Source of the DNA: Nitrosopumilaceae archaeon
GTDB taxonomy: Archaea; Thermoproteota; Nitrososphaeria; Nitrososphaerales; Nitrosopumilaceae
Direction: 5' to 3'
Length of the DNA stretch: 64,000 nucleotides
Assembly: GCA_965207375.1 (NCBI GenBank)
Contig: CBDBMG010000001.1
Span: forward strand, 320,001-384,000
In this document: one piece after another, positions 2,481 to 36,243 of the stretch
Position numbering within the stretch: the stretch's first letter is position 1
How the letters are laid out: every line of letters begins with the position of its first letter
Notes under the pieces: generated by a model
Database searches by the model: none
The model's input: only the letters and a program-made list of their open reading frames with translations
What the model was told of the DNA's origin: nothing
Program-made: the position numbers and the translations under genes

Positions 2481-3368
2481 CTATATAGCTACGTATATGG
2501 TTTGTATGCTCCTTATAAGTATGGGTTTGCATGTGTATAGCTACATACCATGCATATGCACTATAGTTGAGTTTGCATGAACTTCATAGCCAATGACCCT
2601 ACAGTATAGCTATACGTAGCTATTTACATAACTGATATATATAGCTATAAATCTGCTTGTATCGTAGGTCACCACATTTTGAAACCTTGTATAAATAAAC
2701 TCATATTACAGATGTGGCCTAGCTGTTATACCCAGTCCTGCCAAAACATTTCATTGTATCTAGGATATTATCATCATGTAACTATAAAATAATGGAGTAG
2801 CTATAATAATAATAACTTCTGTGCCTAACTGGTAAAGTTAATTCATAATAAACTCTTCTAAGTTTATAACAAATCAATGCAATCATTACAGTGATAATGA
2901 TATAGTGATATCATGAAAACAGATTAGATCAATTAGTGGATAGACAATATTATGATTAATGGTTAACTGCCTGGAAGTGATTATAGCTAACTGGCTTTCT
3001 CATACGTAATACGTAAATCCTTTTCTTGTTACCAAATAAGATCCTTTTGCATGATACTGCATGTGGAAGTACAAATTCCCATAACAGTGTGTAATATTCT
3101 TAGAAAATAGATATTATGTATCACAGTGGCATGTATAACTAAGTTTATACTATGGATAGTGGTTTAGTTATACCATGGTGGTTTAAATTAATTATACCAA
3201 TTATAGCTATACCATGGGAGCATATATAATGTGTGAATATACAGCACATTTCAATAAAAAATGCAGCTACAAAGAGGTGCGATAAAAAACATGTTTACTA
3301 TTAATAGAGCAAAGGACTGTCCAGCTTAGCTATATCACACTCACTCGTGTGATAGCTATCATTTTTAT

Positions 3369-4080
3369 TATAGTGCACCAAGGCATGTACTTGGGAAAAT
3401 GAAATATTTTATGTTTTGTTATTTTTTGAGAAAATTATCAGCATTACACTTATCTAATTAGTGCATTTGTGTAGACACTTATTAAATCTACTCAGGCAAT
3501 ATCTGGTTGCTATGGAAACAACCCTTAATTATCGAATATTTCAATTTTACTGATTTTTGGTATTTTTATATCTAGTTAATGACATTGCATTTAATCTGAT
3601 AAAACTGCATATCTGTAGGTGTATTTTCAATATGACTATATTTCTTACAGAGCAAATCTTAAAATATTTGTTTGATTTCAAAGATATAATTAATAATGCT
3701 ATTTTTAGGCTATTTTCTAAAATCGTTACTGTTCCCACAATGTCCCATAAATGAAAATGTAGTTACTGGTATGAGATACATAAAGGTATACACAAAACTT
3801 CTTACTAAGAATATTTGAAATTTTAATCAAAGCATCAAGTGGAGAGAGCTAAATGTCAAAATAGTACCAAAAAATCAGTAAATTTCTAAAAAGTGCCCAC
3901 CAGCAACCAACAGAAAACCACAGAAATGCAATATAAATACCACATAATTTTGTAGTTATTTATTTCTTAATCACAAAAAGATATAATGTGAAGCCATTAA
4001 TATCATCATGTTTACAGTAGAGTTGAAATAGTGATGTTTTAAAAAATGCTTTTCCCAAGTTTATGCCTTGGTGCACTATA
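3369..4080. mobile_element. Non-autonomous TIR element (about 710 bp), TA-flanked
   Basis: Terminal inverted repeats tatagtgcaccaaggcatgtacttgggaaaa / ttttcccaagtttatgccttggtgcactata; no coding capacity. TA flanks suggest the Tc1/mariner superfamily (inference). Confidence 0.75.
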
Positions 4081-4116
4081 TCTCCCAGTGCGTGGGAAGA
4101 TCAAAGAAGCCGCCAG

Positions 4117-4160
4117 GGAGATATTATAGTTATCACAATGTGATAACTATAATATCTCCC
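4117..4160. repeat. Perfect palindrome, arms of about 21 bp
   Basis: gggagatattatagttatcaca-a-tgtgataactataatatctccc. Confidence 0.85.
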
Positions 4161-4508
4161 TACCCAGAAACCTTTAAGGTTGTAGTTTTAACACCTCTTC
4201 ACAGCTGCTAATAACAAAGTTTGAACAAACAAACACCTTTCGTGACAAACGATCTAGTACAAGCGAACAAGCTTTGTGAGAGATAAACAAGTTATATCCC
4301 ATTCACTCGTATCAGTGGTATCCTTGTTATTAACACTTAAACTCAGCTGTGCCTCGGTCTCGTGTAATAACAAGGATACCATACTCGTTCTGGGGTATAA
4401 CTAATACTTAATACTCTCCTATATCACACTCGTGTAGTGTGATGTAAAATACATATTTATAAGGTATAGCCAGTTATAGCTATTCAGACAAAGTGTGGTT
4501 GGTGACAA

Positions 4509-4787
4509 ATGGTGACAAAGACTAGTTGTGAACCCACTTGCTGCAGTCCCTATGGCTGGCGAATGATTTATCAGTACATGGTGCTCGGCCTACCCTATTG
4601 TGTAGTAGCTGAAAACCTTGCATGGTTTCGATGCTTCAGTTTGTCAAATAACAGCTACAGTTATTTAAATGCACTGGTTCAGTGTGTATGGAGTATTGCA
4701 ATGAAAACATTGATCAAAATGACTGACATTGTAAAATTTTATATACTGCAGCCGTTGCTAAATTGTCCAGGCATCTATACCAGCTAA
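4509..4787 (+). mobile_element. Degenerate N-terminal (HTH) part of a Tc1/IS630-like transposase
   Basis: KTSCEP...WRMIYQYMVLG...VAENL...KMTDIVKFYILQPLLNCPGIY follows a recalled pattern of basal-metazoan IS630/Tc1-like transposase N-termini (WRM.YQ...LG....A.NL...PGIYL); frameshifted, no DDE part. Not database-verified. Confidence 0.55.
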
Positions 4788-5669
4788 AATTTGTTTAACC
4801 GGCTATTCAGGCTTCATTGTACATGTGAGGAGTTATTAGGGATCGGAAGGTCACATGTGACACAAACGTGCACAGCAACCAGGGCATCTTCCATAAGCAC
4901 CTATATTTAACAAGCCAGGGCTTCCATAAAATTAACTTTCTTTTCCTGCACAGTAGCTATAGCTAAACTGTAAAAATTTAAATTTTCATGCCATACGGTA
5001 GGTCACATACTTTTATTGTGTTAAGATATTAAGCCCTGATAAGAAAACAGATTTTATCATCAGGGAAATGCACAATTTTCATGAAAGATTGCCGAATCAG
5101 TTTGTGTAGCTAATGATCTGGAAAACAAAGACTTAGGGTAGGAATATCTCCTGTACATTCAGCTAAACTACAAAGTAAGAGAATTACAGCAACTTTTAGA
5201 AGGAAATGTTATCGCTGTTGATGAGTTTGCTGAACAAAAGCTGTAGTTCTGTAGATTCACTTTGTAAGCTATAGTGTAATAAACTTGCAATTGTATAAAA
5301 CAATATAATTGTATATCAATACATAATGGTAGCTAATGACCTGCCTGCCTGCCTGCATTGCATCTTGGATAAAATATTTTACCTTTTATCAACATTTTCA
5401 CCTTTTGTATTAGATATATAGCTAGCTAGTTGGTATTAAGATGCATGTAACCTGTGCTGTATAGCTGGGAAGTTGGAGAGTGAAAAGTTTGGTGTATTTG
5501 GAAAATCATCTGTGATTCATCAAACCAAAACTTATTACCTTATACTGAATAATATATCGTGACCAAACTCTTCTTCACCAAATACTCATAAGAGTAAATT
5601 TGCCAAACTTTCCTCCTATAGCTACAGTAGTAATTTATTTATGATACTGTTTTGTATGTATCTTTATAG

Positions 5670-5738
5670 GGACTGGTGGTGTGGAGTCAACAGACATTTC
5701 CACCAATTGCTCCTAGTGAAGTGGAAGGCTGCAAATAG
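5670..5738 (+). pseudogene. Truncated paralog of Ig-gene exon 2 (GLVVWSQQTFPPIAPS, then unrelated sequence and a stop)
   Basis: Acceptor tttatag at 5663-5669; near-identical to 10973-11020 up to cctagt (5717), then homology is lost abruptly, with no donor and TAG at 5736-5738. Confidence 0.8.
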
Positions 5739-7000: not shown

Positions 7001-7418
7001 CTTTAGAACTATTGTAGCTAGCTAATTGTGTGTTAGTGACTATGTGTACTTTGAATGAATGTTCTAAGTATTACACAGATGAAAACATCACGTAGAATAC
7101 TGTTAATGTTAAGTTATTGCCATGTTATTGGTTGATTATAAGTGAGTTACCTTACATGCTGTATCACTTACCTATATAATTACCTTTTATGGGAACATAA
7201 AAAATTGTTTTGTAATGGTATAACTTACAGCCACTACAGAGGCCAACTTGTTGGATAATTGTAATCATGTCATCACTTATTTCCATTAAATAATTGAGAT
7301 AACATGAATTAACTGACATATTACGGTATATATGTAGCTAATTAGTATAGCTACCTATAGCTTATGTAAATTCTTTGAAAAATCTTTTGTTAGGTCAAAG
7401 TTCATATATATAGCTTAC

Positions 7419-7446
7419 TATAAAAAGAATATAGCGGACATCAGTG
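7419..7446 (+). promoter_or_regulatory. Putative core promoter of Ig gene 1 (TATA box and Inr-like TCAGT)
   Basis: tataaaaag at 7419-7427, tcagtg at 7441, ATG at 7513; the same block is conserved upstream of gene 2 (20776-20810). Confidence 0.5.
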
Positions 7447-7512
7447 ATTAAGGTAGTTGTAAAGATCGACAGCATTAGCTATAGCTATACCTGTGGGACT
7501 TAAGAAAGGAAA

Positions 7513-7557
7513 ATGTTGTTAATTTGCTGTGTGATTGTGGCAGTCATTCAATCTAAG
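7513..7557 (+). CDS. Ig gene 1 exon 1, signal peptide MLLICCVIVAVIQSK
   Basis: aaaATG, 15 mostly hydrophobic codons and an aag|gtacc phase-0 donor that joins in frame to ALVVWS-QQ of exon 2. Confidence 0.65.
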
Positions 7558-8086
7558 GTACCATATAAATTGCTTTCTGTATTAGTGCTGGTAAGACAGC
7601 TATGAGGTAGCAACATCTCTATTTCTGTCATATAGCTATAGCTGGCTGAATGTAAGTTATATGTATAATTTATAATTGCATAGTGTGGAGTAAACAGATA
7701 TCTGAAGTTCCACCATGCAGTGCTCATCTCAACATGTGTTATATGCATTATAGTCGAGTTTGCATGAACTTCATAGCCAATGACCCTACTGTATAGCTAC
7801 ATAGCTATGTATATATCTGATATATAGCTAGCTATAAAGCTGCTTGCATCGTTAGATCATCACATTTTGAAACCTTGTGTTCATATATTACAGATGTGGC
7901 ATAGCTGTCATACTCATGCATGCAGTCCTGGGAAAGCATTTCAATTGTATCTAGGCCTTTGGGAAGTCCTGGTGGGACATTACAGTCCTGCTTTGGATGG
8001 ACAATATTATAGCAGTAAGTTAAATAAACCAGAAAGTGGCACAATTTCCAAACCACTATACCAACTAGCTACGTAGCTATAACAAT

Positions 8087-8850
8087 CTGGACCTGGTGCA
8101 CATGCAGAGTGAAACATTACTCTTACAGCAGAGCACCTGTCAAGTCAACTGAACTCATAGGCAGATGAGGAGTCCAGGATGGCAAAGAACCGCTACAACT
8201 GGAAATGCAACTATAGGCTGTATTTCTACAGATAGAGTCAGTAATGGACCTAGTGGAGGTGGACTTGTTTGCATCTCATCTAACAACACAGCTTCCCCAC
8301 TTCTACAGCTGGAGACCAGATCCAGAAGCAGAGGTAACAGATGCCTTTATGCATGCAGGATTGGACAACTTGTCGGGGATTTGCCAACCCACTGTGGTGC
8401 CTGATACATCATTGCCTCACCAAGGTGACAAAGCAAGCAGCACATGTAGTATTAATAACACCATTGTGGAAAACCCAGTCATGGTTCCCAATGGTACTAG
8501 AACTTCTGGAGGACTACCCTAGAAAGATCCCGCAATGACAGGATCTAGTGTCAATGCTGGTGGGACAAGACTTTCTGATGCAACAAGGAGTACCTCAGGT
8601 CAGTTGTCTGCCCTATCTCAGGGAATCCTATATGCATCATGAGGACTTTCTTCATCAGCTTTGGATCTCATGCTTGTGTCATAGAGGGACAAAGCCAATT
8701 CCAACTACCTGTATGGTTCCTCCTTCTCTAGATGGTCTAGCTGATGTCGACAAAAGGGTCGAGATCCCTTTTCAGGACTTATAGAGGGTAAATTTTTTGA
8801 CCAGTATTTTTTAAGAAGACTAGCTACCAGTATCCAGCACACATGCTATC
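8087..8850 (+). mobile_element. Degenerate DIRS1-type (tyrosine recombinase) retrotransposon fragment: end of RNase H, methyltransferase-like domain, start of recombinase ORF
   Basis: ITLTAEHLSSQLNS.ADEESR, then VDLFASHLTTQLPHFYSWRPDPEAEVTDAFM/QDWTTCRGFANPLWCLIHHCLTKV...LITPLWKTQSWFPMVLELL, matching the DIRS1 DLFAS...DAF...W...ANPPW...P.W..Q.W signature. Frameshifted; lies in gene 1 intron 1. Confidence 0.85.
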
Positions 8851-9699
8851 TACAAAGAGCTAATGGATAGGGACTGCATGCTCCTTTTATAGGCACAACA
8901 CATTTTTACGTAAATCTTATGACTCTTCAAAATGGCTGTAATATCCTTGTAATTATGCCAATTACATATTGATATTTCATTTCACCTTCTTCATGTAATT
9001 ATAAGTACGTAGCATGCAGGTACCTTGTGCCCTGAACCATTCGCAAATGACATCTTGTACCCTAAACCATTTACAATTGTTGCACTAATGTAATGGCTAT
9101 ACAGGATTACACCTGTTTGTTTGGCATTCATCATGCGCATCATTACTAAGGATATGCCCACATCATAATATTGATGGAAAATGTTATATGAAGGAATTGA
9201 AAAGTAGCAGAATTTGTTTAACTGACTAATCAGGCTTCATTTTACATGTGAGGAGTTATTGGAAGCTCACACACTATGTAAACATGCACAACGACCAGGG
9301 TACATTCCATAAGCGCCCATATTTCTTCCATAAAATCTGTCAACTTTCTTTTCCTGTACAATATAGCTAAACCATAAAATTTAATTACCATTAAATTTTC
9401 ATGCCATACGGTAGGTCACGTAGCTACTTTGATTGTGTTAAGGTAATAAACTCTAATGAGAAAACAGATTTTATCATCAGAGAAATGCACAATTTTCATG
9501 ACAGATTGCATCAGTTGGTGTAGCTAATGAAGGTAAAATTTAAGGAAGAATTTAGTTTGCAGGTATACGTATGCTGAAAACTTTGGAGTTACATGTAGGG
9601 TATTTTTCTGGAAAACAATGCACAAAGTACTGGTTAATGTGTCTTGATAGATCTGCCAATGAAGAAGTGAAACCCCACATCCTACTATGCTGTGATGCT

Positions 9700-10000
9700 T
9701 GAAAATCTAGAAGGAATCTGGCAAACGGTCTGAGAATTGCATTCTGGAACAAATCAGTTTGTGCATGAGTAAGTGCCAACAAGCAGAAGACGACATTGAT
9801 GACTTAGTGAAAGTTCTTAAAGAAAACATGTGTCTAAATATTCTATACCTCAGCATGAATGATTTTCTCAGGAAACCACAAAGGCAGCAATGATCCTCCA
9901 AAATTTCCGGTATTGCATCAAAGATGGAGAAAGCTCCCTAGCAGATGAAATATCTACATTTGCCCAAGCATTTAAACCACAGGTTTCTATATCAACTGCT
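9700..10000 (+). pseudogene. Decayed ribonuclease-inhibitor-type LRR fragment (possible NLR remnant)
   Basis: One frame reads SLCMSKCQQAEDDIDDLVKVLKENMCLNILYLSMNDF, fitting LxLxxCxLxxxxxxxLxxxLxxNxxLxxLxLxxN; flanked by stops and frameshifts. Confidence 0.4.
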
Positions 10001-10312
10001 AATAATTCCTCAGTGGTTGTTAACCAGACTACTCCACCTAAATCTCTGGGCACTAGGGTAGAATATCTCCTGTGCATTCAGCTAAACTACAAAGTAGGAA
10101 TTAAGAGAATTATAACAACTTTTAGAAGAAAATGTTAGCACTGCTGATACAAAAAGCTGGAGTTCTAGATTCAATTTAATTTGCAAGCTAGTGTAATAAA
10201 CTTGCAATTGTACGTTTAAACAATTTGTATATTATAATGGTAATGACCTGCCTGCCTGCATTGCATCTTGACATGATTTCAACAAATAGTGGCCTATAAA
10301 ATATTATAAGTT

Positions 10313-10420
10313 ATAGTTATATCACAGTACGAGTATGATATCTTAGTTATTACACGAGTCCAAGGCGAAGCCGAGGATGAGTGTTAATAACTAAGATATC
10401 ATACGAGTGTACTGTGATGG
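10313..10420. mobile_element. Palindromic MITE terminus (tagttatatc... hairpin family)
   Basis: gtatgatatcttagttattacac...gtgttaataactaagatatcatac around an aggcgaagccgagg core; related hairpins at 4290-4402 and 40440-40545. Absent from the 5370-5390 paralogous position. Confidence 0.6.
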
Positions 10421-10972
10421 GTTTATATTCCAATCCTTTGTTGCAGTAATTTACAAACACATGTAGTTTTAGTACTACAAATAGGTGCAACTTTCTTTGA
10501 AATTTTTCTCACTGGATGATAACTACCCAGCTGGATTATAACTACCCCAGCTGGATGATAAATGATAACTACCAGGAAGTAGTTATCATCCAGTGGTATT
10601 GTAGTTATCATCCAGCACTTTCCTTTGATGTATGGCTTTATTGGAATATAATATTTACTTATAATATATAAACATTTTTACCTTTTGTGAGTAGCTGTAC
10701 GTATAATAATTATATAGCTAATTGGTATTAAGATACATGTAACATGTGCCGTATAGCTGGAAAGTTGGAGAGGAAAAGTTGACAAATTGTCTGTGATTCA
10801 TCAAACTAAACCATCCATTTTTATGTATAATTATAATTACTTTCTCAGCTGAATATATCCATTCACCAAACTCTTCTTCACCAAACGCTCATGAGAGTAA
10901 ATCCGCCCAAACTTTCCCACCATACAGTAGTAATTTATTCATGATTATTGTTTTGTATGCCATCCTATATAG

Positions 10973-11048
10973 GCACTGGTGGTGTGGAGTCAACAGACAT
11001 TTCCACCAATTACTCCTAGTTTTCCTCCTCCTCCAACATCTAATCATG
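10973..11048 (+). CDS. Ig gene 1 exon 2, signal peptide end and Pro-rich linker (ALVVWSQQTFPPITPSFPPPPTSNH)
   Basis: tatatag acceptor, 76 nt, g|gtatag phase-1 donor; a paralogous 76-nt exon lies at 23006-23081. Confidence 0.8.
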
Positions 11049-11393
11049 GTATAGTCAAATTGTAGCTATATTATAATCAGCAGTACAATATTACTGTCAA
11101 TATCGTGACATTTATTACTCATAAACATTTGAATTTTATAGTACCAGTAAAATATTTCATCCTATGTTCACAACTATAGTGCTTGACTGTTAACTAAAAC
11201 TGATATTGTAATAATATCGATTATAATGATATGATATATCGTAACATGAAATTTTTACTATTGCCCATCCCTAGCTGATAGACAACCACTTAAAGCTGAT
11301 ACATTAATTTATAAATTCTTAATTATTTGTTGTAGTAGCTATAACATTTATTTGACTGCTTTGCTTATTTGATTAAGCTATTTGTCTTGTTAG

Positions 11394-11702
11394 GTGTTCC
11401 TCCAGACATTGATGAGGGACCATTTATATCACAGCCACTCGATGTTTTGCCTGGAGACATGACAGTCAGCATAGGAACTCCTGTATATGTTGTTGATGGA
11501 TTTAATGTTACTATTGTCTGTAATATTATTAATGGAACAAGCCCAATTACCATTATGTGGCTTCGTAATGGAGCACCTTATGCTGCTGGAGGAAATATAT
11601 CTACTATTACAGTAACTGATTATAATGATAGTGATGTCTTCACTTGTAGAGCTGATAATATTGTAGGATTTGACGTGGAGAGTACTACTATAAATGTGTT
11701 TG
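11394..11702 (+). CDS. Ig gene 1 exon 3, I-set-like immunoglobulin domain
   Basis: 309 nt, phase 1-1 (ttgttag| ... |gtaagt); canonical Ig C...W...C: VTIVCNIINGTSPITIMWLRNG...DVFTCRADNIVGFD. Confidence 0.9.
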
Positions 11703-11934
11703 GTAAGTAAATTCCATATTTTATCAATACAAGTTTGATTTGTTATATATAAGTTTGGGTTGGAATGTATGCCTGCCTTAAAGGAGTCTCAGAATGTCTT
11801 TCATGATAATGCGTCTCCAGAAACTTGTGGTAGACTAAGCTTTGGTAGTTTGGATTTTCATACATAATGACAAGAAATTTAACTTGAGATACATCACTTG
11901 TGACAATCGCCAAATTAAAAAAATTAACACAAAT

Positions 11935-11985
11935 CAACAACAGCAACAACAACAACAACAACAACAACAATAATAATAATAATAA
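11935..11985. repeat. (CAA)n(TAA)n microsatellite
   Basis: caacaacagcaacaacaac...aataataataat; explains the poly-Leu ORF 11743-12003. Confidence 0.9.
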
Positions 11986-12107
11986 AAATACCAAAATATG
12001 CATTTAGCATTTATGACAGCTATGTATCTAGCTACTGGGAGTTACAGGGTATTTTCACAACTATGATTAGCTTGTGATTTGGCCTGTAGCTAGCTACTAT
12101 CATTATT

Positions 12108-12381
12108 ACCGTATGGCCTAAACTTTTCGAGGGTGAAAATTTTCGCTGATTTTGAGGTTTTTTTGACCGACCATGAAAATTTTATCCTCAAAATATTTGT
12201 TCTATACTACATTTCAATACTTTACTTCTGCAATCTACAAAAATTTTATCCTCGAAATATTTGCTCTATACTACAATTTAATACTTTACTTCTGCAATCC
12301 ACGAAAATTTTATCACGAAAATTTCTTTTTAAAGGAAAAATCACTCAATCTCAAAATTTTTCACCCTCGGCTATATGGTAT
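12108..12381. mobile_element. TA-flanked MITE (taccgtat...atatggta) inserted in the centre of a foldback element
   Basis: taccgtatggcc...cgagggtgaaaatttt / aaaattttcaccctcggctatatggta; the flanks match the two arms of the 19078-19497 palindrome family. Confidence 0.6.
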
Positions 12382-12550
12382 ATAAAGGTGGCCAAGTGAC
12401 AAAGCCAATCATAGTTGTGATAAACTAGTAAATAATAAAATATAAAATTTCTATTGTTGAACTAGCTAGCTAATAGCCTAAAAATATTTGTCATTCAAGT
12501 AAACAATTAAGCCTCTTGGCCTCATAATTAGTTGATATCACATGACATGC

Positions 12551-13082
12551 AATGCTAGTACTGCTTCTGGTTGGCCTCACACATTTTACAGCCAGGCTGT
12601 CACAGTTTTGTTTAAGTATGTATAATCCTCAAAAACCTTTAGGAGAATTAAGAAGTGTCTAGGAAGAAGCGAATCGATACTTCAGGATTTTCCCTTGTAT
12701 TTCCCCAAGTAATAGATGTCCATTAACAATAATAGATTGGCTCCGACATATAATTTGTCTTTGGGCAGACGTACTGCTGGTTGGCAATGCTACATTCTGC
12801 AATGCTAGCGCTGCTTCTGGTTGGCCTCACACTTTTTATAGCCAGGCTGTCACAGTTTTTGTTTGTTAAAATACATATAGCTAATCCTAATTTATAAGAA
12901 AATTTTGACAAAACCTTATAAAATATGCAGGATAATTAAGAAGTATCAATAATAAACTAGAATCAATACTTCAGGATTTTCCCTTGTATTTCCCAACTAA
13001 TATAGATGTCCATCAACGATAATTTGTGACATATGATTTGTCTTTGGCCAGGCATACTGCTGGTTGGCAAAACTACATTCTG
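12551..13082 (+). repeat. Diverged tandem duplication, unit of about 250-280 bp
   Basis: caatgctag..ctgcttctggttggcctcacac...tactgctggttggcaa..ctacattctg occurs at 12551-12799 and 12800-13082. Confidence 0.8.
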
Positions 13083-14736
13083 TTTGTATGCCAATGGAAG
13101 AATAAATGATTTGTTAGTAATAGCTTTTTGCTAAACAAAAATAGCTTGATCATGACTGTAAAAAAGTGTTAGGCCAATCAGAAACAACATTGTAGCTATG
13201 TATAGTGACCAAACACTTTGATATCACAGGCCTGGAGGAATCAAAATGAAATTAGTCAGGCCATGTAATATCACAATGTAGAACATTGACTTGGATATGA
13301 TGTTACATGTTTTAAGGGGCATGCAAAATGCATATGAACCATCAAGTTTATGAATTTATGACTTATTTCTTGTTATAAAAATTAGGTTGTTTAATTAGAG
13401 TATCCTACAAGCACTGTGACTGTTCTATTAGAGTATACTGATCTTTTATTGTGATGATATTATATAGCTTATGGGCTTACCTACTCCAAAGCTATACACA
13501 TAGGTGATTGTTTTATTAGAGTGACTATTCAGTTAGAGTATATTGACATAAACTATCTATTAATAATTGGTTAGGCTCCAGCCTTACCAACTGGTTCCGC
13601 TGGCCCTATATCAAATAAGGCCAAGAAGTTATCAAAAATCACTTTAGCCATTTGAATAACATACAAGCAGTTTACAGGGCATTTTCACAACTATGATTGG
13701 CTTTATCACTTGGCCACCTTTTTTTAAAAATGATGGTATAAAAAAGGTGGCCAAGTGACAAATCCAGTGATAGTTGTGACAAGTTGATATTTTACCATCT
13801 AAAAACCAGGCGCTGTGTAAGTTAAACCACTGTTAATCCACTGCTATTTAATGCATTATAATATCATGTGTAAGTCACGTGAGCAATGACTCATCATTAG
13901 GAACACATAGCAATGCATACAAATTTGGCTTTACACTCCAGCACTTTAGTGATAAAGCTTTTTAAAAGTTGTTTTGATACTGTATAGGCCAGTCTTCTTT
14001 TATAAACTTCACAATCCGCATGGCATGTTCACTTTCAAAGCTGAAGCACTCCATCTTATTAGTAATGTACAGCTGGATAAGCGCCTTTTACTGTGTAATG
14101 AACAGCAAATACGGCATTATCTTACTCTTCTTTAGCAGTAACTCCCAACGTATTTTGTTACTAAGGCCATGTTCATCAATATCAACAGCAAATGTCATAT
14201 AATAAAGAAAAACTGAAAGCAGTAGGACTTATTTAATGGTTATTCGGGTTACATTTCACATGAATAGTTATTTATAGCCTCAAGGCAGTCACACACACAT
14301 ACATACGTACACAGACAGACACACACACACTCACACTCACACACATAATTTGCAAACAAAAGCAATTTCAAGAAGCTATGCAAAGTCCTGGGAACGTGGT
14401 TTAAAAATGCCCTGCGAATTATTTGTACGCATGTCATTCAAGTGCTAGCTATGCTTTAAAGGATTTTTGATAAAGAATTTTAAATAATTATTTAATAAAC
14501 AACCTCATAATTACTATTCTATGAAAATTAATAATTCATTGTTATGAAATCATTCAACATACACCATGCAGGTGTCGACAGGGGAGGATCCAGGGTATCC
14601 CAAAGGAAGTAAAATTAGGTAATATAATAGAGGTGGGTGCACCTGCCTCTATAGAGCTCTGTATATTACCCAAAAGATACAAATATTAAACACATTTTTA
14701 TACTGAGATAAGAGCAAAAAATTGATTGCACAGTCA

Positions 14737-14920
14737 ATTATTATTATTATAATTTTGGCAAAAAGGCAAAAATAGCCTGTACACCAAATCATTATTCAAT
14801 AAAACAGTACATGTTGTCAGTCCAATACATATCCAGCTTCGCCTTGAAGTAATTTAAAGAGCATGTTTCAATAAAAGGTTGTGGTAAATTGTTCCATGCA
14901 TTCACTACACGATGAGATAA
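14737..14920 (-). mobile_element. 3' remnant of a CR1/L2-group LINE
   Basis: Minus strand reads LSHRVVNAWNNLPQPFIETCSLNYFKAKLDMYW, the typical ORF2 C-terminus, followed by a short UTR and a (TAA)n tail. Confidence 0.75.
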
Positions 14921-15306
14921 AGGTGTTAATTATTTATGAAAATAAAAGTAACTGGATATGAATGAAAGATAATAGCTTCATGTGCAAAAATGATCGAAAT
15001 GAGAAACTTGAGAAACATTGAATCTAGCTACGTATAAGCCCAACAATTTAAGTGGTAGGGTAAGCTTCATTGGCATAGCAGTAGTCAACCTATTTCTGCA
15101 GGTGTCTGCTTGATAGACCAAGCTTGCAGCATGTAGCTACATCATAGCTGTCCCTTGGTAATAATTAAATTCACTGTAGAGGTTATAAAAGTACCTGTTA
15201 GTCTGAGATCCCTATTAAATAGTTGCCACCATACTTGATATTATAACACCTCACTATACTTGCATATAGCTATACATATTATACTATAAACATTGCACTT
15301 ATCTAG

Positions 15307-15453
15307 CAACTGAAGAGGATTGCTCAGTTACCATGGTTAGTGGAAAAGTTAGGCATAACCAACGAAGAAACAGAACAAGATTTAGGTTTTCATCTGATGG
15401 TGATCCAAAGGTCACTTATAGATGCAAACTTGATGATGGGGAGTTTGATGATT
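15307..15453 (+). CDS. Ig gene 1 exon 4, first half of the C-terminal beta-sandwich-like module
   Basis: atctag acceptor, 147 nt, phase 1-1, t|gtgagt donor; ATEEDCSVTMVSGKVRHNQRRNRTRFRFSSDGDPKVTYRCKLDDGEFDD. Confidence 0.75.
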
Positions 15454-16112
15454 GTGAGTTTATAGCATTTATTGCTGTCTACAGCCAGCATACTGTGGCT
15501 TATATTATTGATATTTTTGTTTGTGAAGTGTAAGATAGGTATGTATATATCTAGTTCTGCATGCATGAAGTTCAATGTTTTATTACCAGTATGGTAAGTA
15601 TATATAGCTACATAGTTCATCAGATTTTTGTACCGACACATTGATAGTTTCTGGTTAACAACTTTATTAACAGAACAAAAATTTGTGGATTGAATGACAC
15701 TTAGTTACATAGAATGTTGTATAAATAATTTTATAGGGCTATTAGGGGGCACTGGGTCCATATTTTAAAGAAAGGTTAGCTAGAGCTTATACCTATTTGC
15801 AGTGTAGCTACATACATACTTTTAGTGTAGCTATAGCTAATCCTTATGCATTTTAGGAGGTATTTAAGGTGCAAACCTTACATATATACGTAGCTACAAA
15901 TATTAGCTATAGTTTGTGGAAGGGACAGTTTCTTGGTTTCCTACATCAGAGAATCTCTAAGGTCAAATGCCAGGCCAAATGCCACTGTGAATGACCATTT
16001 AAAATGTATGCAGCTAGATAATGTTTATGTAGCTGCACAACTCCATATGATAATGATTTAGCTTTCATATAGCTACAACTAGTTGTAATATTACGTAGGT
16101 ATGTGTATTTAG

Positions 16113-16243
16113 GTAAAACTCGTATGATCTGGAGAAACTTGAATAGAGGAAGACATACTATTGCTGTAGAAGCCTTCTGTGTTGATGATGAAGGGAAAAG
16201 ATCTTCTACTGTGAGAAGAAATTTCAACTTTCGAATTCCTTAA
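16113..16243 (+). CDS. Ig gene 1 exon 5, terminal coding exon
   Basis: tatttag acceptor in phase 1; CKTRMIWRNLNRGRHTIAVEAFCVDDEGKRSSTVRRNFNFRIP then TAA. Completes a 708-nt CDS (235 aa). Confidence 0.75.
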
Positions 16244-18517
16244 TCAGTTTCCCTTCATGCTGGCAATTGACTATAATTACTAGTAGTGTGTAATTCTTTG
16301 TTAGGTTTCTGCACTGAATTTGGATTTTGATTTAGTTGCTACTCTTTTATTTTTCATTTGACTTGACTTCATCATGCATTGTGTAGCTATAGTAGGTAGA
16401 GCATTGTACATTGTCAGCTATACAGATTTGATTACTAATCAGAAATGTTTATATATTAGCTAGATTGTTATAGCTAACTAAGCTAGTTGTATAATAATAA
16501 CTAAAACATTCAAATAACTTTAGTCATACTTATAGCTATATGTATGTGATGAGCATTCAACCAAATACCTAGCTATAGTCCCTAGAAACAGAGTGCTAGT
16601 GGAATTGCTCTATAGGCTTGAATTGATGTTTCTCAATACTGTGATTATCTTTCTTATGCATTTATCCGCCTATACTTTCACTATAAACTTTCAATGGTGA
16701 AGTTGATAATTTTGACTTTGATTTCGTTGTCGAGTGTGGTCGCAATATTAGGGAAGGACTCGAAGTAGTGATTAGACCAGGTGTTAATAAGACTAGTGTG
16801 AAATTACTATTTTACCCATGTTGTATTATCTGTGCCTCTTGTGACATCAGATCCTGATTGCACTGATGACGTGTTGCATTAAATGGAAAAGTTTTCAATC
16901 CCTTGTTTTATTGTTAAAATGTGAAATGAAATTTAAAAATGTGTAATTGATAATCTTACCATTCAATTAATATAATGAAACAAAAAATTACCCTGTCTCC
17001 CTCCCTTTAAGAAGGCTTGGCATGTTTAATCGCCACTTTGTTGCCTTTCTTGTCAATAATAAATGGCGAAAGGTGGCCAAATGATAAATAAGTCTAACTT
17101 CCATGTTCTGATCAGTTAAAAGACAAAGTTGCTGTCAGTAGTAGTTAGCTATAGCTATTGCAATAGTACAGTAACATAGTTATGTACATTATGTATTATG
17201 AGAATTCAAGTCATATAGGTACGTAAATAGTTTTGTGGATCACTTCATTTTTCCTATTATATTTTCTGTTTATATCCTTGCAGCAAAAACTGTAAGAGTG
17301 CAAATTTTACATATTTATTGTGACAGCATAAGTATGTATTGAAATATACAGAACATAGCTATACAGCCACCTATAAACAATGGAACTGTGAAGCTACTTA
17401 GGGTGTTCATGTAATGGGTATAATTAGACACCCTGACTTGTACCCTGATACCAATTAGTCTTGCATTGCTAAACCCTCTTTGCATAGACGCCTATCGATT
17501 GGAGATCATAAGTGCTGCACTACAAGGGTCTAGTACTGTTTACAGGTCCTGAGCAAACAGTTTTTGTTGGGTGCTAATAGCTAGGTGTTCATAAGATCAT
17601 GTGTAAAAATCCACTGCCAAATACAAGCACATATGCTAATTCATTACAAAAACCCATCATTACCAAAAAAGTGTGAAGAAACATATTGTGGCCTGACTGT
17701 GAATAGTATCAGACCCCGTAGCTCAACTGAATGCTTATAACCCCCATGCCAATTGATAAATGCCTGTCCAAAGAGGGTTTGGCATAGTGAGACAATAACA
17801 TGTGGATAAAATGTAGCATACAACAGTCATGTGATCCCCTCATGTGACCTTACCTATTGTATAGTATTTACATGTTATGTATTTTGACTTTGAGAAAAAC
17901 ATGAAGTACATTTTTATTAAGTAGCTAGTCACCCACCCTTGTAATTAACACACCCAATGGGTTTGTTACCTTCTGCATCTTCAAGTGGGCACTTGTATCA
18001 TCTAAATTAATAACCTGCTTTAATAATGATAAATATTATTTTGACCATATCAAGCATGGTCTTATCTAGTCTTGCAAGCCAGACTCACTTTTCCCACCCC
18101 CATGTAAAATGAGAAGGTGAATCTGGCCAACCATGTGCAACAAAATTTCCCTCAGTAGCTAGTACACGTTAATCTGCTTTATCTTTACAGAAGAACTTCA
18201 GTGAGCTGGTGAATAACCTAAAGAACCACCCGCCTTGAGTAGCCTCGGATTGTGGGATCCCACGCCTGCTCGAAATAAACGAGACATGACCATGCACTAT
18301 ATACCCATGCTTACGTATACCAAACTAACAAGTGTACCTGCCTGTTGTGCAGGGTGTAAGCCGTGTAGCTAAATGCATGTTCATGTGCATGCAGATCATA
18401 TCACACTATCTAGCCACTATATGATCTCCTATAATATTATGCCCATCTAGTCTCCTATGCAGTGGCATAGCTAGCCTATTGTGATTGGTTGGGCACCACT
18501 TTATATAGAACTCATTG

Positions 18518-20832: not shown

Positions 20833-23005
20833 TATGATGTAATTAACTTATTAGGAACCACATGGAATCTGATTTGCTAAAAATGTCAGGTCATGCAACT
20901 ACACAGATTAAATTCGGACCACAGCACAGGCTGAATGGCTATATAAGGCTATATAATAATAATGTAGCTACGAAGTTCAAATGAATATCGTTAACTGTGT
21001 GGCCGGAACAAGAAATGCATTCATGTCCCGAAGTGATAATACCATTGGTAGTCTCGCGTAGCCAGACCCTTTTTGTCGCAGGGCGCTTATCGATTAGAGA
21101 TTATAAGCGCCCGCTCAGAGAGACTATGGTAGGGCTGGCATTGCTATAATTTAGCCTGATATCTAACCTCAGTTCTAATTCTGGCTTAGCTGTTGAAAGC
21201 TACGTATCAAATAACTTTTCCAGATACAAATCCTCCAACTTCCAACTGATGTCATTTTGATACGTAAAATTTCGTATTCCATAGTGCACCTGATAGGTTT
21301 CACCTCGCAACTGTCGAGTTGATTGCCGGATTTGAGTTGGATCAATGAGATGGCTCGTCTAGCTATATACTTGTTAACAGCATTGGATTTAGTAAGTTTG
21401 ATTTGGTTATATCTAGCGTGATTTTTGTAGTACACTGAGTAGCCTGAGGTATATCATAAGTGCGAGGTAGTTTATTGTGGCAGCTAGGGCGGCTATATAT
21501 ATTTGAGGGGGCGGTGACACAATCAATTCTCTTTTATACCATAGGCGATTTTAAGGGGTCTGGGGGTACAGCCCCTCACCCCTACCCTATTGAAAATAAG
21601 TGAAAAATCTTACAGTATAGCTACAACACTGATGGTAAATTAAACAGTGAGTCTATAGAGTCTAGTACATGTTTCTAGGACATACTGGCATGATAGCTAT
21701 ACTTAATTAAGGAGCAAACTTCACACAAAATTTACATTTCTGAGTGAAGTAGTATAACTTCCTTGGTCCCCTGACAAGAAACTAAGCCCCCTGTATCCTA
21801 GTTCTAGAATTATCACTGGTTTTTACACGTATAGCTACACCTTAAAATTCTACTAGTTTGATTATGTCACTGATGTATAAGGGCCCTCTCCGCTTTAAAG
21901 CGTGTGTCATGTTATACCATCTTGATAACACAGTGGTTAGCCCCCTCAGTCAAAAATATAAAAGGATAAATGTATTGTTATACATAGAACACTAATTCTA
22001 TATAAAAGGATGGATGTGTTGTTATAGAACACTAATTCTTGTCCATTTAATTGCATCAAGTAACAATTTATACTAAAGGGGTAGCGGCTATGCATTGCAC
22101 TCTAAATCTGGCATTTCTGTACTTGACAGAATAAAACATCCCATAGCTTCTGAGGGCTACACCCAATAACCCCTACTTTAGAGATCCACTGTACTAGCTG
22201 TGCTTAGCTCCCCTCTCTAGATCTGCCTATGGCTGGGTAGCATAACTATATCACTCTCCTTCATGGGATTCATCATGAATTTTTGATCATTGTTGCTGTT
22301 TTCACAGACTAGCTATGGGGAAGTACATTATGTAGTGAATGATGGAGGTTATGTACATGCTGAGAATATAGATCTAACTAGATATAAAATCTATAAAGTC
22401 TGGGATGTTGAAACCTCTCGGGTACCTGACCATGGCACCGAGGGATGCTATAGTTTCCCAGTGAATAAGTCTTGCGATTAGCAGTGCAGCCTCTATTAAA
22501 ATATCCTTTCTTTCCACAGTTAAGGGGTTTATCACAAACATTATCCCATGGCTATAAACCTGTGAGAAGGCTTATATATAGCTTGTTGACAGGGATGCAG
22601 AAAAAATCATGTCGCGATACTCTTAATCAGTATGCACTTTACACATGCAGTCTGCTATACACCAGACTACATATGAAGACAGGCCATACTGGAACGAAAT
22701 TGAACAAAAATGATTTATTACATTATACATGTGATCTGTTAGACTACACCCATGAGAATAATCTTCAAAGCATAGTGCTTGAATATCTTGATCCATAATA
22801 TAATATCTCTGTGGTGCTTAGCCCTATTGAAGCACAATTAAATACTGGGCTTCAGTTTATGGCAACATAAATTTTGTTCTACAATGTCTGCAGTGAATGG
22901 AAAAGAATGACAGTGAACTTGAACATACTATGCACCATGTTTATTAATGTCTTGCATAATAAGTAAAATAGACTGTACATGAGCTTGTGCATGATATTTT
23001 TATAG

Positions 23006-23081
23006 GCACTGGTGATATGGGGTCAGCAGACACTTGCACCAATCACTTCAACCTTTCCCCCTCCTCCAACCATGAATGCTG
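23006..23081 (+). CDS. Ig gene 2 linker exon (ALVIWGQQTLAPITSTFPPPPTMNA)
   Basis: tttatag acceptor, 76 nt, g|gtatagtcaaa donor identical to that of gene 1 exon 2. Confidence 0.75.
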
Positions 23082-23350
23082 GTATAGTCAAAATATTATT
23101 ATTTCATTATTTTAATTTTAGTTTTTAAAAATTGCATTTAAAAACATAGGAACAACACTCTGGCAATGAATAATTTATACAAGACTAATACAAAAATGTC
23201 CATCAAAAGTATGTACATAATTATAGCTAGAATTTAAAAAATCTTGTGCCAGTGTTGTTCCATATATCCTATTGCATTTTTCCTTGGGTTTTTTAGGTAA
23301 AACATGTAAATTTACATGCAGTCTTTTATTGTGTCATTCCTTAGTAGCTA

Positions 23351-24778
23351 CTAGAATAATAAAAAATTGAAAATTTAAATGGTGAGTAGGGAATATAAAT
23401 TATTATACAAAATCATCACCAGAATCAATCTCAGAGCATTTAATTTTCAAAATTTTCCTGGGGGGGCATGCCCCCAGACCCCCCTGTAGGGATCGAAGGG
23501 ATCCACTAGTACAGTGCTACAAAAAGTAAGGAAACAAGAAATAAGATTCTGGCACGAATGAACACTAAAGATTCTGGCAAGAGATAATTTATAAAAGTTT
23601 AATCCCTACTTTTGGCTCATATTAGTCATTATAGTACATTTGCCAAAAGTAGGGATTAAACTTTTATAAATTATCTCATGCCAGAATCTTCAGTGTTCAT
23701 TCGTGCCAGAATCTTATTTCTTGTTTCCTTACTTTTTGTAGCACTGTACTAGTGGATCCCTTCGATCCCTACTCATCATTTAAATTTTCAATTTTTTATT
23801 ATTCTAGTTTGTAAGCTTTTTATAGGGCATTATAATAATCATTCAGGTGCCTATATAGCAGCTACACAAAAATATACAGGCGCTAACATAATTATGGCTT
23901 CTTTACAGGCGCTTGTTAACAACCTGCTTGTGTGGCAAAGCAGCTGTGCAAGCAAATTACATCCTTTAAAAACAGCGAATATATTTGTCCAGCTGCTTGT
24001 CGATGTTGACTGGTGTGTGTTTCAGTTGAATTAGTTTAGTTATAATTTATGGAGTCGTATAGTGTATAGTCGTTTTCAAATAGTTGTTAGTTATCAAGTA
24101 ATGTAACAGTGGATGTGGCGTAAGTTGATGCTGTGTGTTTTTGTGTAATGGGATAGCAACCACGTGTGTGTATGCGCATGCGTAATATTTAAGTATTGTA
24201 GCCTAGAATGCTTCTAAGCCGTTAAACAATATTCCTCTGACAACATCGAAGAGATATGCAACATTCCATGCATGAAGCGATTTGTAACTATAAAACGGCA
24301 GGCGCGCATTATTGTACCTGTTTACACCTTGTATGGAATGTTGTGGTCATGCTGAAATTGTTTACGCATTCCAATCGATAGAGAAGAAAGTAAAGAAAGG
24401 AAGTATAAAGGAATCACCATGGCGCAGTGGATAAATCGTCTTCGGAACAACAGTTTCGTAAATGGGAAAGGATAACCTTTGCCGTGCTGAATTTCTGGAG
24501 CCGTACACCTAGCGGAACCCGGTCTTACGGCAGGCTGGCAGGCCGGCAGACGAAATCCAGGTGATTTTTGAATTTTTTAAAATTCACTATAGATCGAAAT
24601 AATCGATATTTCGCTTTGTTAAACAAATGTAAAGCATTATTATAGCTGTGCCAGTGCGTTTAAGTTGGTTTTTTCGGCTAAAGCGCATTGTAAGGTGGGT
24701 TTCTAGATGTGCGAAAATTCCACATTCCATACATTCCTTATCGATCCCTACTATTAAGTACTACCGTACTTAATGATA
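23351..24778 (+). mobile_element. Helentron-like non-autonomous element with an inverted duplication of its 5' end, present only in copy A
   Basis: The empty site in copy B reads ttagtagcta|tactgtgatt. Sub-terminal IR gtagggatcga / tcgatccctac; 3' hairpin attaagtac-tacc-gtacttaat (24753-24774); inverted arms 23351-23616 and 23642-23808. Confidence 0.7.
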
Positions 24779-26916
24779 CTATGATTAATAAGATTGCAGT
24801 CAAGCTTGATATCAAGTAGTCCACTCAATCCTACAGTATAGCTTTAATAGTTAGGGGTGAGAACGAGTATAATTAGTTGAAAGTGAGAAATATTTGCTGA
24901 ATTCCACTGACACACGGTGGTGATTGATATCATGAAGAAGTGAGACCACAAAATGTGACTGTCTCTGATGAAGAGAAGGCCACTTTAACTGATGCAAACA
25001 AGAATCAGATGACTTTGTCCATCCTCATATGGATTGTTTCCATATGCTGTCACAAACCCAGTGAGCAGCATGATGCTGAACATTCTCCAAACATGCAATG
25101 TCACCGGGAAAGTGCAAATACCAAAGCAAAGTTGCATATTCCAAAACAGGACGAACTATGCACTTGTAGGAAACAGCTTTAATTGCGGATGAACAGGCAA
25201 TCTCAAAAAATTAAGATAGCGAGAAGCTTTGGCCGTAACATATTTAACCAAACTTTCTATAGCAAAGTAGCATGAAGTACATAGCTGTACTTCATGCTAC
25301 TTTAAAATGTTTGGAAAAACTGAGAGAAATTGCTTAATATTATAGCCATAATCAAGTACTATCCAGACACAGTAACAACATAGTTACAGATGGCCAGGTC
25401 TGCTTTTACTAATAGCATTTTGTTGACCCTGTAAAGCAATGAAGAGTTACTGAAGGGCATTAATAAGGTGGCATAGGGTGCCAAGCTGCTCCCAATGTCC
25501 ACCTCAGCTTGTGCTAGGGCCACTGTGATCAACTATTGAACATACAGCTTGGCTGCCTCTGTCTACTGGCAGTTATAACCAACCCACCATCACCCTCCCC
25601 ACACCCTTCCCACATGCTCATCCTTTATATGCAACATTCATGATATTCCGAAAACATTCAAAGCCTCTCAAAATCAACGATTTCGACTACGTAGCTGCCA
25701 ACTTTGTTCATGTAATGCTAGCTACATATAAAACTAGTTGCAAATCTAGAGTGATTAATATTATATACAATTAAGCATACAGAGTCTTGAATAATTAAAA
25801 TTGGTATTTGTGACAATACAGCCAGTTTTCAGGCACTAACAGTACAAGATTAGCTGTGATGCATAGCCACGCTGAGTTCACCCTATCATGAAGCAACTAC
25901 AGTAAAAACCCAACTAAACTGCTACTGTTCTTGGCTTTGTATTGTTAATTTGCTAGATTGTAAGTCAGTGTGAAAATAGTCTGCATTAGCTATACATTGC
26001 TGATTCTTTAAATAGCTCTCCTGTGTGTTAACACATTACAGTATAACCGATAACACATCAGTACAATAGCTGGTTCAATATTTTCCAACATACAAATTAT
26101 ATTCTGTATAAGCAACAATGCAGTCAAATGATTGGTGTGCTATAGTTAGCATTTATCCTATGGTGATCATGAGAGTGGCTGATAGCCATTAATGTGATAT
26201 ACATGGATAGTCACTTTACGAAAGTTTGTCCATAGTTGCAAGTAATATCATAAATGGCTTCCGTATAGCAAAATTGTATGCTTTGTTATATGAGTATTTC
26301 ATCAGTAGAAGTTTTGTTACAATGCCTCTAAACATTGCTATGTTAGCAGGAGGCAAGGAGGAAGGTACGTATAGTAGAAACATGTAGCCAGAGTGGATAG
26401 ATTTCATTTTCACAGTCAGCGAATTATTGCTAAGTATTAGCAGGTTTTGTGTTGGCAGCAAAATCCTTTTCCCTTGAATAGAGTGAGTGACAAGAGAGTG
26501 CTAAGATGATGGTAGCTATTGGGCAGTAGCTACACACTTAATATTTCATTGGCATATGTATGTATGTTACAGCTTTGTTTAGAGAACATGACCTTTGATG
26601 GTTTTAAAGTAGAGCACTTTTTCTTGTTGGACACAGTAGAACCACTCTGATTTTAAGTGTCTTTTGCCATAGTATTTCCCAACCACCTTCTTGTTATTTT
26701 TAAAAAATCAGTATCCAATTTATGTCAAAAGAATATAGCTAACGGACAGCTGAACTACAGCAAAAATTGAAATCATGCCACTCTTTTTATTTGCCACATG
26801 GAAGTTGTTTTACATCATGTTTGTGACCTGTTTGCAACTACTCTGTACAAGACACAATTTGACAATTTGTCTCTCTGACTTATTTAATTGCTCTTGTTTT
26901 TTATCTATTTTATTAG

Positions 26917-27231
26917 ATGTTCCACCAGACATTGATGAGGGGCCATTTATACCACAGCCACCTACTGTTATGCCTGGAGACATGACAGTTACAATAGGAA
27001 CTCCTACATATATAGTTGATGGATTTGACGTTACTCTTGTCTGTAACATTGCTAGTGGAACACGCCCAATTACCATTATGTGGATTCGTAATGGAGCATC
27101 TTACCCAGCTGGAGGAAATCAATCTATTATTATAGTACCTGATACTGATTATAATGATGGCGATGTCTTCACTTGTAGAGCTGATAATACTATAGGGTTT
27201 GACATGGAGAGTACTACTATAAATGTGTTTG
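26917..27231 (+). CDS. Ig gene 2 Ig exon A1 (I-set-like)
   Basis: 315 nt, phase 1-1; VTLVCNIASGTRPITIMWIRNG...DGDVFTCRADNTIGFD; close paralog of 11394-11702. Confidence 0.88.
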
Positions 27232-29239: not shown

Positions 29240-29447
29240 ATGACTGCTGTCACTATGGCTACTGTCGCTATGACTTCTGTGACTATCACTAGTTACTATG
29301 ACTACTATGACTATGACTACTATGACTATGACTACTGTGACTATGACTACTGTGACTATGACTACTATGACTATGACTACTATGACTATGACTACTGTGA
29401 CTATTGTGACTATTGTGACTGTGACTATTGTCACTATGACTATTGTG
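29240..29447. repeat. (GACTAY/GACTACTGT)n microsatellite just upstream of Ig exon B1
   Basis: tgactatgactactatgactatgactactgtga...; intronic, directly before the ttgtttgcag acceptor. Confidence 0.9.
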
Positions 29448-29465
29448 AATTTGTGTTGTTTGCAG

Positions 29466-29807
29466 AGCCACCACAAATTCTACCTATTCCTTTCCCAACT
29501 CCTCCACCTGGTGAAATGACAGTCAGTACTGGTCAACTTATGAATGCTACTATTATTACACTTGGCACAGATGTTACTATTTACTGTCCATCCAGTGGTA
29601 TTGATACTCCTAGTATTGAATGGTTCAGAAATAGTGTAATGGTTGTGGCTGGTGGTCGGTTTACAATCTCTACAACAACATTACCTGGAGCAGTCATTAC
29701 TAGTGTTTTAAGAATTGATGATTTTCAAGGATCAGATGCTGGTACTTATACCTGTACTGCTACCAATGTAGTGGGTTCAGATGATGGAGGTACTAAGTTG
29801 CTAGGAG
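29466..29807 (+). CDS. Ig gene 2 Ig exon B1 (I-set)
   Basis: 342 nt, phase 1-1 (ttgcag| ... |gttagt); VTIYCPSSGIDTPSIEWFRN...SVLRIDDFQGSDAGTYTCTATNVVGSD with the DxGxYxC motif. Confidence 0.9.
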
Positions 29808-30425
29808 GTTAGTTGTTACAGGCTACATATTTCATTTCATTGTTATGTCAAATTTGTTGTAACACCTTCACACAATTACATCAAAGGATGCAGGTGTGGA
29901 TATCAGCACACTTGGCTGTGGTATAACCAGGACATCAAAGTGTATAAGTGTGGCATAATCTGATGTCACCTATTTGAAGTGTTCAACAACTTTAACTTGG
30001 TCTTTATATAGTCACACCAATGCAATATCGATTGTAGTTTTTAGTTTTTTAAGCTGATTATTAATTGCCATTTGCTCAATACAGTTTTGTTTTTAATCTA
30101 AAAATGTTTCTAAAGGCTATCTGTTATCTATTTCAAGCTTATAAGCCGAAGCATAACTAAGCGCCATTTGAGCTGAGTTGCTCACGTGACAAAAATAATA
30201 TATTTACTGTGTGACTGTATGTATATTAATCTACTTTAGTTACAATACTCACCATTATATTAAGCCCATTATAAGTCTTGCAGCTTTATAAAAAGTTGTG
30301 GTAAACCCACAATCACTGCCACTACCATGCAAGAATGTCATGACAATGATAAAATAGAGACCCACAATGAGTACTCATTACTATATAAAGAGGCTGAGAG
30401 TTTAGCATCAAGGCCATCCAATTGG

Positions 30426-36225: not shown

Positions 36226-36243
36226 AATTTGTGTTGTTTGCAG

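Follow-up and report, generated by a model that had tools for sequence, protein, structure and literature searches.

The DNA analysed here is a stretch of 64,000 nucleotides (the window; G000:C2:320001-384000) from an assembly of four contigs, C1–C4, and it carries a predicted five-exon gene on the plus strand. The product would be a secreted protein in which an acidic immunoglobulin (Ig) domain of animal type is followed by a C-terminal module related in sequence to the Ig-like units of large bacterial surface proteins.

Gene model, paralogues, and host contigs

The genome record is a mixed bin, consisting of an ammonia-oxidising archaeon (C1) and animal-type eukaryotic DNA (C2–C4); its rating, despite the eukaryotic half, gives a completeness of 99.95% and a contamination of 0.06%. 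The prokaryotic contig C1 (2.16 Mb) has 83% of its length covered by open reading frames (ORFs) of at least 150 amino acids (aa) and encodes an archaeal AmoA at G000:C1:900566-901114 (E 8.9e-115). C2–C4 amount to 2.14 Mb, or half of the assembly bases, are covered to 13–22% by ORFs of this size, and contain intron-bearing Ig exons together with a jockey-like reverse transcriptase that is closest to animal clusters. Because C2–C4 are eukaryotic and only C1 is archaeal, the module gene sits in animal-type eukaryotic DNA. Our guess, from the co-binned ammonia-oxidising archaeon, is that the host is a sponge.

Joining the five exons gave 708 nt, comprising 235 codons and a TAA stop with zero internal stops, with AG and GT at every internal exon border and phases of 0, 1, 1, and 1; the donor sites of exons 3 and 4 read GTAAGT and GTGAGT, respectively. 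The original prediction, made from the letters of the DNA alone, had proposed five phase-compatible exons encoding 235 residues, and this was borne out on splicing, as were a Pro-rich linker, which is encoded by exon 2, and the absence of a transmembrane segment, residues 1–19 being the only strongly hydrophobic 19-residue window (Kyte–Doolittle 2.5) with no second membrane segment. As read from the sequence, the exon arrangement is beyond chance for exons 2–5, exon 1 is a guess, and the splicing of all five exons is a prediction. The proposed signal peptide stood in part: residues 1–19 are hydrophobic and exon 2 carries the leader end, but no counterpart of exon 1 was found beside the paralogues.

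The translation of exon 3 shows a readable Cys...Trp...Cys Ig core, and the Ig part has a net charge of −10 and four N-x-S/T sequons, in agreement with the acidic, multiply glycosylated domain that had been proposed. The Ig exon matched Pfam Ig_3 at 33.4 bits (E 6.5e-8; cut-off 30) and I-set at 23.4 bits, just under the cut-off of 23.7; the assignment to an Ig domain therefore holds, and the more specific I-set label is borderline. The module, expected to span about 90 aa, comprises the C-terminal 92 residues, is basic (net charge +6) with four Cys, and adjoins the animal-type Ig exon in compatible phase. A look-up of RNA records over window 7400-16400 listed none. Contigs from four public runs span introns and exons alike, with no exon-border joint among the rows listed, and are uninformative on expression. 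Downstream of the gene, AATAAA is absent within 750 bp of the stop codon and one ATTAAA occurs at 16878, which is not decisive.

Table 1. Features of the predicted gene, in window positions (^ marks an exon border).
Feature	Position	Strand	Description
Putative exon 1	7513..7557	+	ATG + 15 codons; start of hydrophobic leader; phase-0 donor AAG^GTACCA; least certain exon
Exon 2	10973..11048	+	Leader end (ALVVW) and Pro-rich stretch; phase 0 to 1; acceptor TATAG^GCA, donor CATG^GTATAG
Exon 3	11394..11702	+	One acidic Ig domain with 4 sequons; phase 1-1
Exon 4	15307..15453	+	First half of the unit, strands A to C; phase 1-1
Exon 4 end	15453	+	First base of the codon for the second hairpin Cys
Phase-1 intron	15454..16112	+	GTGAGT...TTTAG; lies within the unit and divides the codon for the second hairpin Cys
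Exon 5	16113..16243	+	Second half of the unit, comprising a C.SP-like turn, the G.HT..V.A strand, and the last strand
Stop codon TAA	16241-16243	+	End of exon 5

Most of these exons recur on C2. Exon 2 has six further copies (~80% identity, identical AG/GT borders), and the hydrophobic end of the leader opens the exon in all seven. The Ig exon has four close C2 copies at 76–78% amino-acid identity and several more distant ones, and one database ORF, P0001, is 59% identical to it. Exons 4 and 5 have three further copies each, all on C2 and with identical splice sites (donor T^GT(G/A)AGT, acceptor TTTAG^GT), open frames, and four Cys in every case. The prediction that an intron splits the module was confirmed in all four copies, where a phase-1 intron with GT-AG ends occupies the same position. 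A scan of the whole assembly matched only these eight module exons, on C2, and nothing on C1. An animal-only model of the module had a single non-self match in the assembly, a PfkB-like ORF on C1 (E 0.047), which we judged to be chance.

The window copy packs exon 2, the Ig exon, and the module into 5.3 kb of one strand, with no other Ig-like ORF in between. Compared to the paralogues, this copy has a synonymous divergence (dS) of 0.17–0.20 and a ratio of nonsynonymous to synonymous divergence (dN/dS) of 0.61–0.77 in the Ig exon, and corresponding values of 0.25–0.36 and 0.59–0.74 in the module. The similar degree of divergence in the two parts fits joint duplication and weak constraint, and a dN/dS of 0.6–0.7 against paralogues would suit a fast-evolving recognition or adhesion family.

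Relatives of the C-terminal module

We searched 1.84 billion representatives with a profile of exon 4 alone, built from its four copies (A1), and matched 334 proteins at E ≤ 1e-3. The best 150 of these 334 were inspected; 124 of them are long proteins with multiple repeats, and the other 26 are short ORFs. Among the matches listed, the long proteins have 3–21 A1-matching stretches and 3–33 units each, and a model of the spliced module showed that the unit runs through both halves in 121 of the 124; because exon 5 took no part in the search, the match to its half is extra support. The exceptions were P0023 (an SprB-repeat protein), P0111, and P0114. The Cys-hairpin motif, C-x-[LIVM]-D-x(5-9)-C followed by SP and G-x-H-T-x-x-V-x-A, also occurs in 121 of the 124 listed long matches. 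It is present in all four animal copies, although the window copy has KTR in place of SP.

The 26 listed short ORFs are 52–94 aa long. One of them, P0006 (66 aa; window 15336-15533), is the window exon 4 itself, read through into the intron. The remaining 25 show 40–71% identity to the window exon 4, and their matches end exactly at both exon borders, '[D/E]C.V[T/S]' and 'C[E/K][F/L]', with the donor read through. These shared borders point to a sizeable, diverged family of exons of the same structure in public data, labelled 'prokaryotic'. They carry a practical warning, as eukaryotic exon fragments from such bins enter protein databases as 'prokaryotic' ORFs.

The best bacterial units show ~50% identity over 47 residues. 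In the alignment A3, the exon-4 rows fall on the first half and the exon-5 rows on the second half of eight bacterial units in colinear order, with only a two-residue insertion and with the intron in one column, at the second hairpin Cys. A bacteria-only profile of 809 units, run against 130,049 sequences, gave 83.6 bits for the spliced module of the window (E 3.8e-23; residues 7–87 of 91) and also matched the separate ORFs of exons 4 and 5 at 48.9 bits and 23.9 bits (E 1.7e-4), respectively; these figures, like the identities, are partly circular because the bacterial units were chosen by their likeness to the animal exon. Judged from sequence, the module is a true homologue of the Ig-like units with Cys that occur in large surface proteins of prokaryotes. 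The resemblance to bacterial surface-protein repeats, which the original prediction had put forward, thus proved to be real homology by the profile searches, the A3 alignment, and the 83.6-bit match.

Pfam scans found Big_13 in 14 of 16 long matches, on which Y_Y_Y and Big_3_3 often score too, and in seven of eight single aligned bacterial units (best E 1.4e-9). The module had been described as Y_Y_Y-related; Y_Y_Y scores on many long matches and matches 2 of 16 A3 rows (best E 0.0056), and the animal halves have no Y_Y_Y match. Pfam scans of the bacterial units, and of the two module halves, returned no fn3 match. HYR/HYR_4C (PF23237) likewise gave none with the animal halves, and its only match, on bacterial P0028 (E 6.6e-5), was partial and below the cut-off. 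Tandem arrays are a trait of the Cys-hairpin subtype and are absent from the four animal copies, each of which has one unit per locus.

The predicted fold of P0119, a bacterial relative, is all-beta and consists of tandem seven-strand sandwiches (pLDDT, the predicted local distance difference test score, 90.4). Among solved chains, Foldseek placed it closest to the BIg stalks of SiiE, GhpA, and the Marinomonas ice-binding adhesin MpIBP (E 1.5e-10 to 2.7e-8), with FN3 tandems next. By sequence profile, nothing in the PDB was close, the best matches being SiiE (E 0.0023) and a chitinase FN3 (E 0.061).

The relatives are widely spread among prokaryotes. When A1 was run over prokaryotic genomes representing one species each, two loci were found, one in a Solirubrobacterales metagenome-assembled genome (MAG) with a G+C content (GC) of 70% and one in a Chloroflexaceae MAG with a GC of 52%, and their uninterrupted units scored 34.8 and 33.6 bits, respectively. 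The full-unit profile A3 had matches in 39 of 151 sampled genomes of the phylum of the first MAG and in 14 of 151 of the phylum of the second. A word-indexed search with 29 exon-4 sequences returned 131 longer proteins at E ≤ 1e-3, of which 120 were listed; Big_13 is present in 107 of the 120, and PF07679, PF13927, and PF13895 are absent from all of them. Fourteen of the matches listed bear an organism name, and these are 13 bacteria, one archaeon, and no eukaryote. An ordinary FN3 or Ig domain with broad eukaryotic homologues was looked for as well, and no family of such membership emerged as a closer relative in the PDB-profile and word-indexed searches.

We also built a tree of 99 rows, comprising 4 spliced modules, 25 exon-4 ORFs, and 70 prokaryotic units (the best unit per protein, from the 70 best-scoring of 121). 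All 29 eukaryotic rows fall on one side of one branch, with a support of 94 in the Shimodaira–Hasegawa-like approximate likelihood ratio test (SH-aLRT); the tree is compatible with a single origin and is no proof of it. Core identity between animal and bacterial units has a median of 41% and a maximum of 56%, compared to 47% for random bacterial pairs.

Other searches returned little. The module halves alone gave chance-level rows only against the PDB and no usable match against the ESM Atlas; exon 4 gave no match in a word-indexed search for longer proteins or by tblastn against plasmids; and searches of genome contigs with P0031 and of metagenome contigs with A1 found no related loci. P0014, searched by tblastn against plasmids, returned 142 records of Ig-like repeat proteins; a unit on a Microvirga plasmid, the one record inspected, says little on subtype because it is without the cysteines. 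On the archaeal contig, a 608-aa ORF (G000:C1:1186880-1188703, plus strand) contains six ~100-aa repeats with a weak likeness (E 0.16) to the unit's second half. Lacking the Cys hairpin, this ORF is an implausible donor.

Repeats and neighbouring genes

The intron between exons 3 and 4 contains a ~175-bp repeat resembling a miniature inverted-repeat transposable element (window 13608-13782), which occurs in both orientations, at many adjacent sites, and in well over 100 copies on C2–C4, and a second dispersed repeat (window 13779-14345). A segmental duplication relates positions 2554-5717 to 7741-11020, ~5.2 kb apart; its upstream copy includes a truncated duplicate of exon 2, consisting of the first 47 bases and the acceptor, at window ~5671-5717. 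The palindromic words TAGCTA and TATAGCTATA are found at 7–56 times the mononucleotide expectation on C2–C4, for example at window 7485-7500 and 16380-16395, and are under-represented on C1.

Farther along the window on the plus strand, positions 23001-38611 hold a second multi-Ig gene or array, with a copy of exon 2 at 23001 and Ig exons at 26919, 29510, 33647, 36288, and 38297. One Ig pair in it is duplicated ~6.7 kb apart, and no module exons lie downstream of it on the contig. Frames of the second type of Ig exon open with a (YDYC/YDYY)n tandem stretch (window 29231-29500 and 35973-36250, plus strand), which, though conserved in both copies, probably represents a microsatellite of the intron that happens to be in frame. 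The reverse transcriptase mentioned above belongs to a non-LTR (long terminal repeat) element and is a 539-aa open frame of the RVT_1 family at window 60243-61862 on the plus strand.

Origin of the module and comparison with known systems

We think it rather likely that the gene encodes an animal-type secreted protein composed of a leader, a Pro-rich stretch, an Ig domain, and a captured bacterial Ig-like unit of ~85 aa. Capture of the module from bacteria is itself probable on sequence grounds, and is the most economical account because of the wide prokaryotic spread of the unit, the absence of named eukaryotic relatives, the tree, and the identities. One bacterial unit would have been captured once by an animal lineage and would then have acquired its phase-1 intron. 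Two Cys would have been added, probably forming a second disulfide beside the hairpin disulfide inherited from the bacterial unit; such a bond is plausible because the extra Cys, one where the first strand starts and the other where the G.HT..V.A strand ends, share one end of the sandwich in this fold. Exon shuffling may have linked the unit to phase-1 Ig exons, and tandem multiplication of the module gene would have come afterwards.

In bacteria, the unit serves as a spacer of adhesin stalks. Where it stands alone and positively charged in an animal protein, it would more likely be a binding or oligomerising end, and the pairing of an acidic, glycosylated Ig domain with a basic (+6) unit might present two faces for matrix, cell-surface, or microbial polyanions, suggesting an extracellular binding or adhesion protein. 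More tentatively, the adhesin unit may have been captured once by an early-branching, microbe-rich animal, possibly a sponge, and may have radiated there into a large secreted family with which the host binds its microbiota or its matrix; it would then be a recognition tool of the host made out of an adhesion module of microbes.

Several observations weigh against capture and against the protein as drawn. The Pfam and fold evidence comes from exon halves and bacterial relatives rather than from the spliced animal module, and Big_13 was found in none of eight animal half rows at E ≤ 1 (cut-off 27 bits), so that the halves alone match no Ig-like family. P0114, a Siglec/CD22-like protein of vertebrates, scored E 1.4e-7 in the exon-4 profile search as a false positive produced by repeated 'SCSSDGNPAVNYTWY' strands, and it indicates that summed repeat scores need checking. 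The tree spans 62 columns, is unrooted, and contains a window row flagged for odd composition, and weaker-scoring single-unit eukaryotic relatives are possible because the matches inspected were the best 150 of 334. The partial circularity of the bacterial comparison and the missing counterpart of exon 1 count on the same side. In three paralogues, moreover, the nearest recognisable upstream Ig exon is ~27 kb or more from the module, and the compact Ig–module join is thus not the family norm. Across comparisons, dN/dS ranges of 0.48–0.86 for the module and 0.6–0.9 for the Ig exon indicate weak constraint, under which decay is possible.

Without transfer into animals, the module would be an old, vertically inherited Ig/FN3-like domain that has been lost or gone unannotated elsewhere, or the unit would have passed from eukaryotes to bacteria. 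Ig-like sandwiches are universal, the structural matches of P0119 extend to eukaryotic FN3 tandems, and, beyond the limited depth of the inspected matches, the databases do not hold the host proteome in spliced form. We nevertheless regard such a history as unlikely, as none of the 14 organism-named matches listed is eukaryotic, the 120 listed longer proteins are dominated by Big_13 and lack the three other Pfam families named above, two bacterial phyla that are unrelated to each other commonly have the unit, the eukaryotic rows occupy one branch, and the median identity between animal and bacterial cores is close to that of random bacterial pairs. That the mixed bin produced an artefact, in which a eukaryotic contig was assembled or binned together with bacterial DNA, is hardly credible. 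The GT-AG intron stands at one conserved place in four copies, the 25 diverged database ORFs end at the same two borders, C1 has no match, contigs of public DNA runs from two studies cover the module stretch, and the GC of the module exons (37.4%) equals that of the Ig exon (37.2%), compared to 52–70% for the bacterial loci. The conserved phase-1 intron, the host-like GC, and the four paralogues thus establish that the module is host DNA, not contamination.

The module exons could belong to another transcript, for example that of a long multi-Ig gene or that of a separate gene with hidden upstream exons, or exon 1 could be wrong and the protein not secreted as drawn. The lack of support for exon 1 and the distance of the paralogue modules from Ig exons point this way, and because all Ig exons are phase 1-1, many joins are possible. 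In the window copy, however, the three parts lie close together with good splice sites and no Ig-like ORF between them, the leader end stands at the start of exon 2 in every copy, and the dS values of the Ig exon and the module look as if the two had been duplicated together; a different transcript is therefore possible but doubtful. The window copy might also be a decaying duplicate, or pseudogene, with working members elsewhere. Its module dN/dS relative to the paralogues, the truncated exon-2 duplicate and segmental duplication just upstream, and its repeat-filled introns are all in keeping with decay, but its five exons are open, its splice sites are intact, and the four Cys and the motif residues are kept. 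Given that the Ig exon has a similar dN/dS, the high ratio may be the normal mode of the family, and we consider a pseudogene decidedly unlikely.

Transfer of an extracellular domain from bacteria to animals has rarely been documented with internal evidence of this kind, namely an intron, host-like GC, expansion, and fusion to an Ig domain. If the predicted transcript and a restricted animal distribution hold true, the gene would show cleanly how an animal has taken a module of bacterial adhesins into its surface or secreted Ig repertoire. It could then offer a handle on host–microbe recognition in a symbiont-rich host. The literature listings and abstracts covered contain no description of a fusion between an Ig domain and a bacterial-type unit, and supplements might list such genes. 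In PMC4784904, the terms Ig-like, immunoglobulin, Big_, domain fusion, and chimeric have zero occurrences.

Teneurins, according to an excerpt of a published account (PMC6425310), are animal surface proteins built partly from domains of bacterial ancestry. The present protein would be like them in embedding a bacterial extracellular module in an animal surface or secreted protein; unlike them, it has a different type of domain, a small stalk unit combined with a single Ig, and is apparently confined to one lineage. With ordinary metazoan secreted Ig proteins, exon 3 shares the 1-1 phase, the Cys, the Trp, the D..D.F.C pattern, and the match to Ig_3, whereas the C-terminal FN3, Ig, or other animal modules of those proteins are replaced here by a Big_13-type unit.

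The closest likeness is to the Cys-hairpin subtype of Big_13 (PF19077), with which the module shares a colinear unit and the motifs F.FSS, Y/F.C.LD......C.SP, and G.HT..V.A; Y_Y_Y and Big_3_3 score on the same bacterial proteins. Bacterial units of the Big_13 type form tandem arrays of 3 to >30, whereas the animal module occurs as one unit per gene. It further differs from them in being split by an intron, rich in Arg and Lys, extended by a two-residue insertion, joined to a eukaryotic Ig domain, and equipped with two extra Cys (module residues 5 and 70). Among solved structures, compared by way of the bacterial P0119, the nearest folds are the BIg extender domains of SiiE (2yn3/2yn5), GhpA (9fl*), and MpIBP region II (4p99), which, in contrast to the unit, have no Cys hairpin and share a weak sequence likeness with it in the last strands only.

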